Shown here: in pieces, positions 11,958 through 53,409 of the stretch
Numbering within the stretch: position 1 is the stretch's first letter
How the letters are laid out: each line of letters starts with the position of its first letter
From: Escherichia coli
Lineage (GTDB): Bacteria > Pseudomonadota > Gammaproteobacteria > Enterobacterales > Enterobacteriaceae
DNA length: 64,000 nt
NCBI RefSeq assembly: GCF_003790525.1
Contig: NZ_CP033635.1
Strand: one strand, 5' to 3'
Position numbers and translations under genes: made by a program
Notes under the pieces: generated by a model
Told to the model about the DNA's origin: nothing
The model's input: only the letters and a program-made list of their open reading frames with translations
Databases searched by the model: none

Positions 11958-13160
11958 TTAACTGGCTTTTTTAATATGCGGAAGGTCGAATGCTTTGCGC
12001 AGTGCCCGAACAAACGCTTTATCGTGGCAGATAGTTTTGCCAGGGCTGTCAGAAAGTTTCGCCACCGGTTTACCGTTACACTCAACCAACTTAATGACAA
12101 TATTCAGGGGTTTTACCTGGGGGATATCGCAGGTCAGGCGAGTCCCAATACCAAAACTTAATTGCACGCGGGAAGAGAAATGGCGGTATAGCTCAACCGC
12201 TTTGCGTAAATCCAGATTGTCAGAGAAAACCAGCGTTTTACTCTGTGGATCAATTCCCAGCTTCTCATAATGTGCAATGGCTTTTTCACCCCATTCAACC
12301 GGGTCGCCAGAGTCATGACGCAGGCCCTGATAGCGACTGGCGAACTCGACACCGAAATCACGCAGGAAAGCATCCATAGTGATGCAGTCGGTTAATGCAA
12401 TGCCAAGTTGGTCGGGATACTCTTCCAGCCAGGCAGCAAGTGCAGCTCGCTGGCTGTTGGCTAGATCCGGGCTGATTTGCTGATGCGCCTGGAACCATTC
12501 GTGTGCCTGTGTTCCCATCGGCGTGAGGGAAAGCCGGCGCGCCAGATCATAGTTGCTGGTGCCCACGAACCAGGATTCCTGTTGCAGACGCTTAACGATG
12601 GTTTCTTGTACTTCGCGAGAAAAACGGCGGCGGGTGCCAAAATCCATCAGATGGAAGCGCGACATATCAAGACCGGCGGTTAATGCCGAGAAGTCGACTA
12701 ATTTGCTTTCCAGCGTGTCGAGGGCTTGCGCAACGTCGGTCTGCGGTGAGCGATAGCGATGTACCATTTCACTGATAACCGCCAGCAAAGGAACTTCCCA
12801 GAGGATGACTTCACGCCACGGGCCGCTTAAACGAATATCCAGCTTGCCATTATCGTTGGATACGGTGACTTGTTCCGGGTTAAAGCGGAACTCGCGTAAC
12901 CAGTTAAGATAGTCGGCCTGAAAGAAAGGCAGGGCAGAGAGCCACTGATATTCATCATCCTGCAGGCGCAGGTGCTGCATCGCCTGAACCTGTTCACGAA
13001 TAGCATCGGCATAAATACCCAGCAGATCGTCACCTCGGCAACGAAACTCCGCCGCGACATGCACATCGTAATAGTGATGAAACACGGCTTGCTGCATATG
13101 CAACTTATAAGCATCTGTATCCAGCAACGAGTGCAGAACAGGAGAAGCGAATTGTGTCAT
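11958..13160 (-). CDS. pncB: Nicotinate phosphoribosyltransferase, 400 aa
   Basis: Matches PncB from [22 protein letters not shown]; start placed 16 codons inside the ORF-track start. Confidence 0.93.
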
Positions 13161-28735: not shown

Positions 28736-29278
28736 ATGCGAATTAAACCAGACGATAACTGGCGTTGGTATTACGATGAAGAGCACGATCGAATGATGCT
28801 CGATTTAGCCAATGGTATGCTATTTCGCTCACGTTTTGCGCGCAAAATGTTGACTCCAGATGCCTTTTCTCCCGCAGGCTTTTGCGTTGACGACGCCGCG
28901 CTCTATTTCTCATTTGAAGAAAAATGCCGCGATTTTAATTTATCTAAAGAACAAAAAGCCGAACTGGTGCTTAATGCGCTGGTAGCAATTCGTTATCTCA
29001 AACCGCAAATGCCGAAAAGCTGGCATTTTGTTTCCCATGGTGAAATGTGGGTGCCCATGCCGGGCGATGCGGCCTGCGTTTGGTTGAGCGACACTCACGA
29101 GCAAGTCAATTTGCTGGTCGTTGAATCTGGCGAAAATGCCGCACTATGCCTGCTGGCACAACCCTGCGTTGTTATAGCGGGTCGCGCGATGCAGCTGGGC
29201 GACGCCATCAAAATCATGAACGACAGGCTGAAACCGCAGGTTAATGTTGACAGCTTCAGCCTCGAACAGGCAGTTTAA
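28736..29278 (+). CDS. zapC: Cell division protein ZapC (YcbW), 180 aa
   Basis: Matches ZapC from [24 protein letters not shown]. Confidence 0.9.
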
Positions 29279-30384
29279 CGCGTCAGCTTAAGTGCAGTCT
29301 TCGGTACACAACTACAGCAAAGAATAGTGCCATCATCACCCATTGCTGATTTTTTCAGCGGCGTGACTTCGCCTTCTAAAAGCTGAACACGGCAACTTCC
29401 ACAAATGCCCGCGCGGCAAGAATAAGGGATACGAATTCCCTGATTTTCTAATTGCTCCAGCAGCACCTGTTGGTTATTTCCACGAAATGCCTGTCCCTGC
29501 CAGTCAATATCTACGTTTGCGTCCGGTTGTTGCGTGATGTTGGCAGTATCATCGGCGGCACCTGCGCCGTAAATTTTAGCTGGAGCCGTTGCCAGAATTT
29601 CCACCTCATCGCCAACGCGAATCACGCCGCTATTACGGGCAATTAAATTCTGACCAAAATCGACATCGCCGTTATCCTGGGCAGTACGGAAAGATTGCAG
29701 CGTTTTTAATGGTTCGCCTGCCGGATGTTTTTGCCCTTTTTCTGGGCTGACGGTGGTGAAAATACAGCGGCTACAAGGCTTAACCACATCAAACACGACA
29801 TCACCAATGCGAATCACTTTCCAGCTATCTTCTTCCCAGGCCGATGCACCGGAAACCACCAGATTGGGGCGGAATTGCTCCATTTTTACACTGGCCGGAC
29901 AACGTTGTTGGAGATCACGTAACGAGGCCTCGTTAGCAAGAAGGTAAGGATAACCATCAGCAAATGACAGGGGTACAGTGTTGTGGCGTTTCACGCGCCG
30001 GGTCATTTGTGGCCCCACCCAGCGTAATTGCACTTCGCGGGAGAAAAATCCACTTAGCCATTTGTTGATCGCGTCTGGCGCAATTCGCGCGGTAAAATGT
30101 GTGCCCCAAACTTCGGTTGGTGCGTCTTGTGTGGCGAAATCAGCAAAACGAACATATGCACTACTGCCATCTGGTGCGGTGAGATGCAAGCCATCATGCA
30201 CGGGTGAAGGAGTAAACCGTACCATTAGCGGAAACTGGCGAGCGGTAATAAACGTACCGTCAGGTTCCGTGATCATAAAGATGCGATCGAAGGCCAGACC
30301 ACTGACATCTGCCAGGGTATGTGTAAGACCAATGCCGCGCATCGATTTAACAGGATGAATAAAAAGCCGGGTTAATGTCGCCAC
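29275..30384 (-). CDS. ycbX: MOSC-domain protein with C-terminal 2Fe-2S ferredoxin domain, YcbX, 369 aa
   Basis: C-terminal plant-type ferredoxin cysteine pattern (CRAGICGSC...C); N-terminal MOSC beta-barrel; stop overlaps the zapC stop. Confidence 0.9.
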
Positions 30385-43786: not shown

Positions 43787-44416
43787 ATGAAAAGCCTCTC
43801 CTATAAGCGGATCTATAAATCACAAGAATACCTGGCAACGTTGGGCACAATTGAATACCGATCATTGTTTGGTAGTTACAGCCTGACTGTTGACGACACG
43901 GTGTTTGCGATGGTTTCTGATGGTGAGTTGTATCTTCGGGCTTGTGAGCAAAGTGCACAGTACTGTGTAAAACATCCGCCTGTCTGGCTGACATATAAAA
44001 AGTGTGGCCGATCCGTTACCCTCAATTACTATCGAGTTGATGAAAGTCTATGGCGAAATCAACTGAAGCTGGTGCGTCTGTCGAAATATTCTCTCGATGC
44101 AGCGCTGAAAGAGAAAAGCACGCGCAATACCCGGGAAAGACTGAAAGATTTGCCCAATATGTCTTTTCATCTGGAAGCGATTCTCGGGGAGGTGGGGATT
44201 AAGGATGTACGGGCGTTACGTATACTTGGGGCAAAAATGTGTTGGTTGCGACTGCGGCAGCAAAACAGTCTGGTGACAGAAAAGATTCTGTTTATGCTTG
44301 AAGGGGCCATTATCGGCATTCATGAAGCTGCGCTCCCGGTGGCTCGCCGCCAGGAGCTTGCAGAATGGGCTGACTCTCTTACGCCGAAACAGGAGTTTCC
44401 TGCGGAACTTGAGTAA
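43787..44416 (+). CDS. sxy: Competence regulator Sxy (TfoX), 209 aa
   Basis: Matches Sxy/TfoX in length and sequence. Confidence 0.92.
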   Translation: MKSLSYKRIYKSQEYLATLGTIEYRSLFGSYSLTVDDTVFAMVSDGELYLRACEQSAQYCVKHPPVWLTYKKCGRSVTLNYYRVDESLWRNQLKLVRLSKYSLDAALKEKSTRNTRERLKDLPNMSFHLEAILGEVGIKDVRALRILGAKMCWLRLRQQNSLVTEKILFMLEGAIIGIHEAALPVARRQELAEWADSLTPKQEFPAELE

Positions 44417-52713: not shown

Positions 52714-52992
52714 ATGTCGAAAGTCTGCATAATTGCCTGGGTTTACGGGCGAGTTCAGGGCGTAGGATTCCGCTACACCACGCAGTACGAAGCGAAAAAA
52801 CTGGGACTAACCGGGTACGCCAAAAATCTTGACGATGGCAGCGTGGAAGTGGTTGCCTGCGGTGAAGAAGGGCAGGTAGAAAAATTAATGCAGTGGTTAA
52901 AAAGTGGCGGCCCGCGTTCTGCGCGTGTAGAACGGGTGCTCAGCGAGCCGCATCATCCCTCGGGGGAATTAACCGATTTTCGTATCCATTAA
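52714..52992 (+). CDS. acyP: Acylphosphatase (YccX), 92 aa
   Basis: Acylphosphatase signature (VQGVGFRY...GYAKN); start placed at [16 protein letters not shown]. Confidence 0.9.
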
Positions 52993-53318
52993 ATACATTT
53001 TACCGGTTTTGGCAGGCCAGCAATTTTGGTGGCTTGCTTAGCCGGACCTTTCGGAAACAGTCGGTATAAATAGCGGCTGTTACCTTTTTCTTCGCCAAAT
53101 TTATTCGCCATCGCTTTTACCAGCATACGAATCGCCGGAGAAGTATTGAATTCCAGATAGAAATCACGCACAAAACGCACCACTTCCCAGTGTTCTGGCG
53201 ACAGCGCAATCCCTTCGTTCTCTGCAATCACCACCGCCAGTGGCTCACTCCACTGGCTGCTTTCTTTGAGATAGCCTTCGGTATCCGTTTCTATCTCTTT
53301 ACCTTCGAAGATCAGCAT
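52989..53318 (-). CDS. tusE: Sulfurtransferase TusE (YccK), DsrC-like, 109 aa
   Basis: DsrC-family sequence with conserved C-terminal cysteine; stop overlaps the acyP stop. Confidence 0.9.
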
Positions 53319-53409
53319 AATTCTTTACTACCTTAATCAGACTGGCGGCAGTGTAACAAAAAACAAAGCCCCGCATAAAGCGAGGCTATGAAAGTGTTAG
53401 CGGGTGAGA

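Follow-up and report, generated by a model that had tools for sequence, protein, structure and literature searches.

A shared TTAA ends acyP and tusE in Escherichia coli: an ordinary stop-stop overlap, probably a collapsed spacer, nearly invariant across Enterobacteriaceae

In co-directional ATGA overlaps, the stop codon of one gene is fused with the start codon of the next gene on the same strand, an arrangement with a known function in supporting translational coupling. Convergent genes can overlap over an equal length, likewise with two punctuation codons in one tetramer, which in this case holds two opposite-strand stops within the pattern YTAR (Lillo and Krakauer 2007, Biol Direct 2:22; PMC2174442). 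The pattern follows from the genetic code, because the reverse complements of TAA and TAG are TTA and CTA, so that a stop preceded by a pyrimidine also holds an opposite-strand stop, one base off-register. The same study names CTAA, TTAA, CTAG and TTAG as the permitted tetramers, puts the convergent overlaps of E. coli at 58 and reports a jump in frequency at a convergent overlap length of 4. Unlike the stop-start fusion of ATGA, two convergent stops cannot couple translation.

Two further described systems deal with the ends of converging genes. Bidirectional intrinsic terminators face the same problem, namely the ending of two converging transcripts within a tiny space. Strictly, the term excludon implies that the expression of the two genes is mutually exclusive. 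ExcludonFinder (NAR 2025; PMC12288877) catalogues 165 convergent excludons in E. coli MG1655, whose transcription overlaps in at least half of 58 RNA-seq data sets, and reports higher synteny for excludon pairs. Here, we compare with these systems the tail-to-tail junction of acyP (yccX) and tusE (yccK), which lies in a 64-kb stretch of E. coli DNA, hereafter the window. The architecture of this pair, its annotation and its catalogue entry are already known, and a shared TTAA in a compact bacterial genome is textbook-level knowledge and, as such, small as a discovery. What the present analysis adds to the YTAR class is the history of one pair, whose genes are separated by a spacer in Yersiniaceae, Erwiniaceae and Photobacterium, whereas their overlap is fixed in Enterobacteriaceae.

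The coordinates of the pair, and of a second pair with the same architecture, are collected in the table.

Table. Genes and shared tetramers of the two convergent pairs that end in a common TTAA within the window
Feature	Position	Strand	Remarks and evidence
acyP (yccX) CDS	52714..52992	+	92 aa and TAA stop at 52990-52992; ORF, Pfam and RefSeq yccX, same coordinates
tusE (yccK) CDS	52989..53318	-	109 aa and TAA stop (plus-strand TTA, 52989-52991); ORF, Pfam and RefSeq tusE
TTAA of acyP/tusE	52989..52992		two interlocked stops, central TA common to both; sequence
zapC CDS	28736..29278	+	ends ...GTT TAA, stop at 29276-29278; ORF, Pfam ZapC_N and ZapC_C, RefSeq
ycbX CDS	29275..30384	-	stop as TTA at 29275-29277; ORF, Pfam MOSC_N, MOSC and Fer2, RefSeq
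TTAA of zapC/ycbX	29275..29278		second shared TTAA; sequence, RefSeq annotates a 4-nt overlap

On the plus strand, the acyP reading frame closes with ...ATC CAT TAA. Bases 52990-52991 (TA) belong to both stops, while 52989 is the third base of the last acyP sense codon and 52992 the third base of the last tusE sense codon (Ile). Only these two third bases fall within the TTAA, and no further sense codons are shared, giving a CDS overlap of 4 nt with the stops included. The original prediction, that the stops of acyP on the plus strand and tusE on the minus strand overlap within a single TTAA, agrees with the sequence, the reading frames and RefSeq, and its gene names agree with Pfam and RefSeq. 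Its description of a zero-gap pair is right about the shared tetramer, although strictly the genes overlap by 4 nt and the gap is not zero. Both proteins are full length: AcyP matches the Pfam model Acylphosphatase (PF00708) at 5.6e-27 over residues 8-91 of 92, and TusE matches DsrC (PF04358) at 7.5e-45 over residues 4-109 of 109, up to the last position of the model. TusE ends in ...PVKCI, with the conserved cysteine in the penultimate position as expected for the DsrC family. In RefSeq NC_010498.1 (E. coli SMS-3-5, to which the window is 100% identical), yccX and tusE are annotated with the 4-nt overlap, and of 5426 complete E. coli genomes, 5424 contain the locus. The junction therefore joins two genuine convergent CDSs, interlocked by exactly 4 nt in a permitted tetramer; it has the same architecture as the overlaps of Lillo and Krakauer, with no structural difference from them.

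Several features of the surroundings are worth recording. The last AcyP codon (52987-52989) is CAT (His) here, whereas the remaining E. coli loci that were compared, and those of E. albertii, have CGT (Arg), and most other genera end the protein with Tyr. The T that closes the codon, and is the first base of the tetramer, is unaffected by these changes. acyP is the single plus-strand gene inside the minus-strand run yccA-tusE-(acyP)-rlmI-hspQ. Between yccA and tusE, a hairpin with a T run resembling an intrinsic terminator is located at 53367-53387 on the minus strand, leaving ~48 nt upstream of tusE for a promoter of its own.

The second pair, zapC/ycbX, lies 23 kb away, and its architecture was correctly described beforehand as the same as that of acyP/tusE, judging from sequence, reading frames, Pfam and RefSeq. 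Its 4-nt TTAA overlap recurs in Salmonella, Klebsiella and Cronobacter, and computed read-through following the loss of a stop would add 35 residues to zapC and 59 to ycbX. Altogether, nine pairs converge in the window, and their gaps measure -4, 44, 31, -38, 75, 69, -4, 42 and 49 nt. The third overlap among them, yccS/sxy, spans 38 nt (44379-44416) and involves sense codons of both genes, which makes it far longer than the stop-stop class; it is likewise listed as an excludon (PMC12288877). One further YTAR site, at 12158, is shared by two open reading frames of at least 60 aa (69 and 71 aa), and this candidate was rejected as spurious, since it falls inside pncB.

The occurrence of two such pairs in one window raises the question of how common they are. 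We took the base rate from the curated annotation of E. coli K-12 MG1655, using sixteen evenly spaced 50-kb chunks outside the acyP/tusE region, which together cover 800 kb or 17% of the chromosome. In this sample, we counted 110 convergent CDS pairs, for which the median gap is 52.5 nt; 16 of them overlap, five by exactly 4 nt, corresponding to 4.5% of convergent pairs (95% CI 1.5-10.3%). The five pairs are pptA/yddH, mltF/tadA, yidL/glvG, yidP/yidE and yjfP/ulaR, and all five share a TTAA (glvG is a pseudogene in K-12). Within the range from -20 to +20 nt, -4 is the commonest distance, with five pairs, where the mean over all values in this range is 0.66 (Poisson P = 6e-4). The enrichment check on this class, as run on the 800-kb sample, is thus positive. 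In contrast, the co-occurrence of two pairs in one window, which the original prediction had called notable, is not significant, and the claim is not supported: the probability of finding at least two of nine window pairs at -4 is 0.060, a length-based Poisson estimate gives 0.062, and extrapolation yields ~29 pairs at -4 and ~5 such two-pair 64-kb windows per K-12 genome. One of the K-12 chunks offers an even tighter case, with the TTAA overlaps of yidL/glvG and yidP/yidE only 3.4 kb apart (3861173-3864615). The 4-nt stop-stop overlap is hence the already described modal class of convergent overlaps, and acyP/tusE is an ordinary member of it.

Comparison across species offers a greater level of detail about this one member. 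TusE was searched in one genome per species, which gave 80 Enterobacteriaceae species, among them Escherichia, Citrobacter, Salmonella, Enterobacter, Klebsiella, Kosakonia, Cedecea, Buttiauxella, Kluyvera, Mangrovibacter and Shimwellia. Every one of the 80 has acyP as the convergent neighbor of tusE, and in 78 of them the two genes overlap by exactly 4 nt. Read in the acyP sense, the tetramer in these 78 species is TTAA in 48, CTAA in 11, TTAG in 11 and CTAG in 8, such that all four permitted tetramers are in use. The central TA is constant throughout, and variation is confined to the two outer positions. The two exceptions carry small insertions that re-separate the stops, to a gap of 0 in Entomohabitans and of +3 in Cedecea colo, the latter via a 7-nt duplication. 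TusE itself has a constant length of 109 aa across the 80 species, 79 of which share the ending PVKCI; its distant relatives retain a K/R-C-I/L ending, with the cysteine again penultimate. A separate case was encountered within E. coli: strain O2:H16 BA92 (NZ_CP176406.1) carries an IS4-like ISVsa5 in the 3' end of yccX (L230 1280-2488). The insertion alters the end of yccX and leaves an intact tusE ~1.3 kb away, making BA92 a natural strain without the overlap.

The best 120 matches of a TusE protein homologue search are all from Enterobacteriaceae. Relatives outside the family were sampled with a degenerate DNA pattern, built on the C-terminus of TusE and independent of acyP, which gave 80 metagenome loci that we grouped by TusE identity to E. 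coli. At an identity of at least 83%, 35 loci display the -4 overlap. Three more loci of this group are unclear. The contig of the first (L180) stops 61 nt past tusE. The second (L189) is irregular, with a junction sequence identical to that of the overlapping loci and an acyP that is probably frameshifted. The third (L161), also irregular, has no acyP, and its tusE-like frame is 84% identical over the C-terminal two-thirds and contains in-frame stops N-terminally; this may reflect a pseudogene or an assembly problem.

At identities of 72-81%, nine loci still have acyP in convergent orientation, here with spacers of +3, +9, +9, +13, +21, +25, +27, +48 and +79 nt. These intermediate families were sampled from metagenome contigs alone, and identical protein sequences gave names to six of the nine spacer loci, namely Serratia plymuthica (+3), Rahnella (+9), Erwinia (+9), Pantoea brenneri (+13), a Rouxiella-like organism (+48) and Photobacterium phosphoreum (+79). 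The 79-nt spacer of the last (L144) folds into a hairpin, AAAAACCAAACATA...TATGTTTGGTTTTCTTTT, with A and T runs on its two sides, which is a textbook bidirectional terminator of a kind absent in Enterobacteriaceae. Below ~72% identity, acyP is absent except in one weak case. Four distant TusE representatives (60-67% identity) have neighbors other than acyP, and in two of them (L104 and L108) tusE belongs to a yccA-tusD-tusC-tusB-tusE cluster that converges on serS. The linkage of yccA and tusE therefore seems to be older than the acyP neighbor. The TusE search also brought up longer proteins: the best-scoring representative (P0241) has 541 aa with five TusE/DsrC-like stretches, and several proteins of 200-350 aa have two such stretches each. 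From their sequences, these look like tandem fusions of DsrC domains.

The most economical reading of these distributions would be an old convergent adjacency of acyP and tusE, whose spacer and terminator disappeared close to the origin of Enterobacteriaceae, after which the -4 state has stayed frozen. We infer the direction from spacer to overlap by parsimony over a handful of outgroup contigs, rather than from a dated tree. The collapse would have taken place once, probably through a short deletion. To illustrate such a step, removal of the seven bracketed nucleotides between the two TAA repeats of the Serratia-like TGCATC[TAAAGGT]TAATAGCGGAT would create the exact Enterobacteriaceae junction. 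This 7-nt route is plausible as one path among the possible ones, and the 7-nt duplication in Cedecea colo is the reverse of the proposed deletion. Where a spacer is present, its length varies, whereas the -4 state does not drift.

The persistence of the junction can be best explained, in our opinion, by the coding demands of the two genes. Both outer positions of the tetramer are wobble positions, and changes there are tolerated for this reason: an outer change would be synonymous in one gene and convert TAA to TAG in the other, and exactly these changes are seen. A change in the central TA removes one stop, and computed read-through then adds 11 residues to TusE or 26 to AcyP. The -4 state would also be hard to leave by other routes, as most insertions or deletions would harm one C-terminus or the other. 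TusE, for its part, probably needs its penultimate Cys108, the established sulfur-accepting residue of the Tus sulfur relay, near the C-terminal end. Selection on the C-termini of both proteins is therefore sufficient to hold the junction in place. Consistent with this, reduced synonymous variation near the junction, a sign of selection at the RNA level, was not seen across the 80 species: tusE codons 101-109 have a mean third-position synonymous entropy of 1.04, compared to 0.88-1.19 in the other bins, and such unreduced variation fits protein-level constraint alone. We thus regard it as likely that acyP/tusE is an ordinary tail-to-tail overlap, the end state of a collapsed spacer held by selection on both proteins, and not a purpose-built signal. 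The near-total stasis (78 of 80 species and the 35 metagenome loci) would, however, also be expected if the overlap itself were selected.

Such selection is the essence of the strongest competing explanation, in which the overlap acts as a regulatory convergent excludon. The obligate overlap of the two transcripts would make acyP and tusE mutually antagonistic, through polymerase collision or through RNase III cleavage of the RNA duplex, and selection would keep the stops interlocked. Transcript overlap is indeed to be expected at this site. A scan for a terminator-like site at the acyP/tusE junction found none, nor was a conserved terminator-like hairpin in either partner gene or a bidirectional terminator by the stops found. 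Without an intergenic terminator, each transcript must run into its partner gene and end inside it, which sets the pair apart from genes separated by bidirectional terminators: acyP and tusE manage with neither intergenic DNA nor a conserved terminator-like hairpin. The excludon catalogue agrees in that it lists yccX-tusE, zapC-ycbX (in Table 1 of that study) and sxy-yccS with overlapping transcription (PMC12288877), and these three are all of the overlapping convergent pairs of the window. The higher synteny of excludon pairs in the same study and the almost invariant overlap in Enterobacteriaceae can both be counted in favor of regulation. So can the co-purification of yccX/tusE in a RyhB MAPS experiment, mentioned in a review of sRNA target searches (PMC7154689), whose authors note that tail-to-tail overlapping UTRs could explain it; the observation is consistent with an RNA duplex. 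However, any very short convergent spacing yields overlapping transcripts automatically, and the overlap of the transcripts is therefore no proof of selection.

Two hairpins were considered as possible RNA-level elements of the junction, and both were rejected. The first, at 53236-53257 on the plus strand, is followed by a T-rich tail and could have served as an acyP terminator inside tusE, antisense to tusE codons 21-28; other E. coli have a weakened form of it and most genera lack it, which makes it specific to strain or lineage. The second, a strong hairpin at 53003-53045 on the plus strand, starts 11 nt past the acyP stop, lies within tusE codons 92-106 and is predicted in nearly all species, with a mean MFE of -21.3 against -11.4 for shuffled sequences. 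When tested against a randomization of synonymous codons that preserves the protein, its z score is only -1.3. It displays zero compensatory changes, a paired fraction equal to the shuffle expectation and no T run, and it is present also in outgroups that have no acyP. This hairpin is best regarded as a by-product of the conserved peptide.

Against the regulatory explanation, the lack of a conserved terminator adds to the absence of extra conservation at synonymous sites near the junction. Synonymous sites, hairpins and covariation gave no sequence evidence of an added RNA-level function at acyP/tusE. The pair is listed among the convergent excludons, yet selection beyond coding constraint is not seen in its sequence here. 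Furthermore, relatives have spacers, a bidirectional terminator or different neighbors, and in the natural isolate BA92 an IS element separates yccX and tusE. Nor do we know of any function that connects acylphosphatase with tRNA thiolation. Taken together, we consider it unlikely that the overlap is a regulatory excludon maintained by selection, and a selected regulatory role of any kind for acyP/tusE appears similarly doubtful. Somewhat less probable still is the far-reaching form of the idea, according to which the stops are kept so as to force transcript collision or pairing, as a hard-wired reciprocal switch between acyP and tusE across Enterobacteriaceae with zapC/ycbX as a second example. 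If true, such a switch would couple acylphosphatase with the TusE step of tRNA 2-thiouridine synthesis.

A different kind of explanation assigns the function to the DNA itself, with TTAA as a motif for protein recognition, recombination or insertion that is placed at gene ends. TTAA is a palindrome, and it is found at both junctions of the window and in all five K-12 cases. However, the share of TTAA expected from E. coli stop usage is ~0.8, and seven out of seven then has P ~0.21; the excess matches stop usage, and all E. coli cases are TTAA because E. coli prefers TAA stops. Counted without regard to genes, TTAA occurs 266 times in the window, where ~250 occurrences are expected from length alone. 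Above all, the tetramer is CTAA, TTAG or CTAG in 30 of the 78 species with the overlap, and given this variation of the tetramer the motif explanation, which we hold to be very improbable, is largely refuted.

That the overlap is an artefact, be it of a wrongly called stop, of an error in sequencing or of a spurious reading frame, is hardly credible. The only spurious pair of reading frames found is the one in pncB, and nothing of the kind supports an artefact at acyP/tusE. The locus recurs across the complete E. coli genomes, 78 of 80 species have the same stop positions, and the Pfam matches of the two proteins extend to the last residues; with these population data, resequencing is very unlikely to alter either frame.

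The finding can thus be placed at two levels. As a class, shared TTAA tetramers at enterobacterial convergent ends are unremarkable, making up ~4-5% of pairs or ~29 per E. coli genome. The new detail concerns the individual pair, in which the overlap is present in 78 of 80 species with all four tetramers in use, while sister groups have spacers. As such, acyP/tusE is a clean example of the origin and persistence of an overlap, in which a spacer of 3-79 nt would have given way to the -4 state and the wobble positions alone have remained free. The same properties make the pair a handy test case for the regulatory value of an obligate 3' overlap of transcripts.
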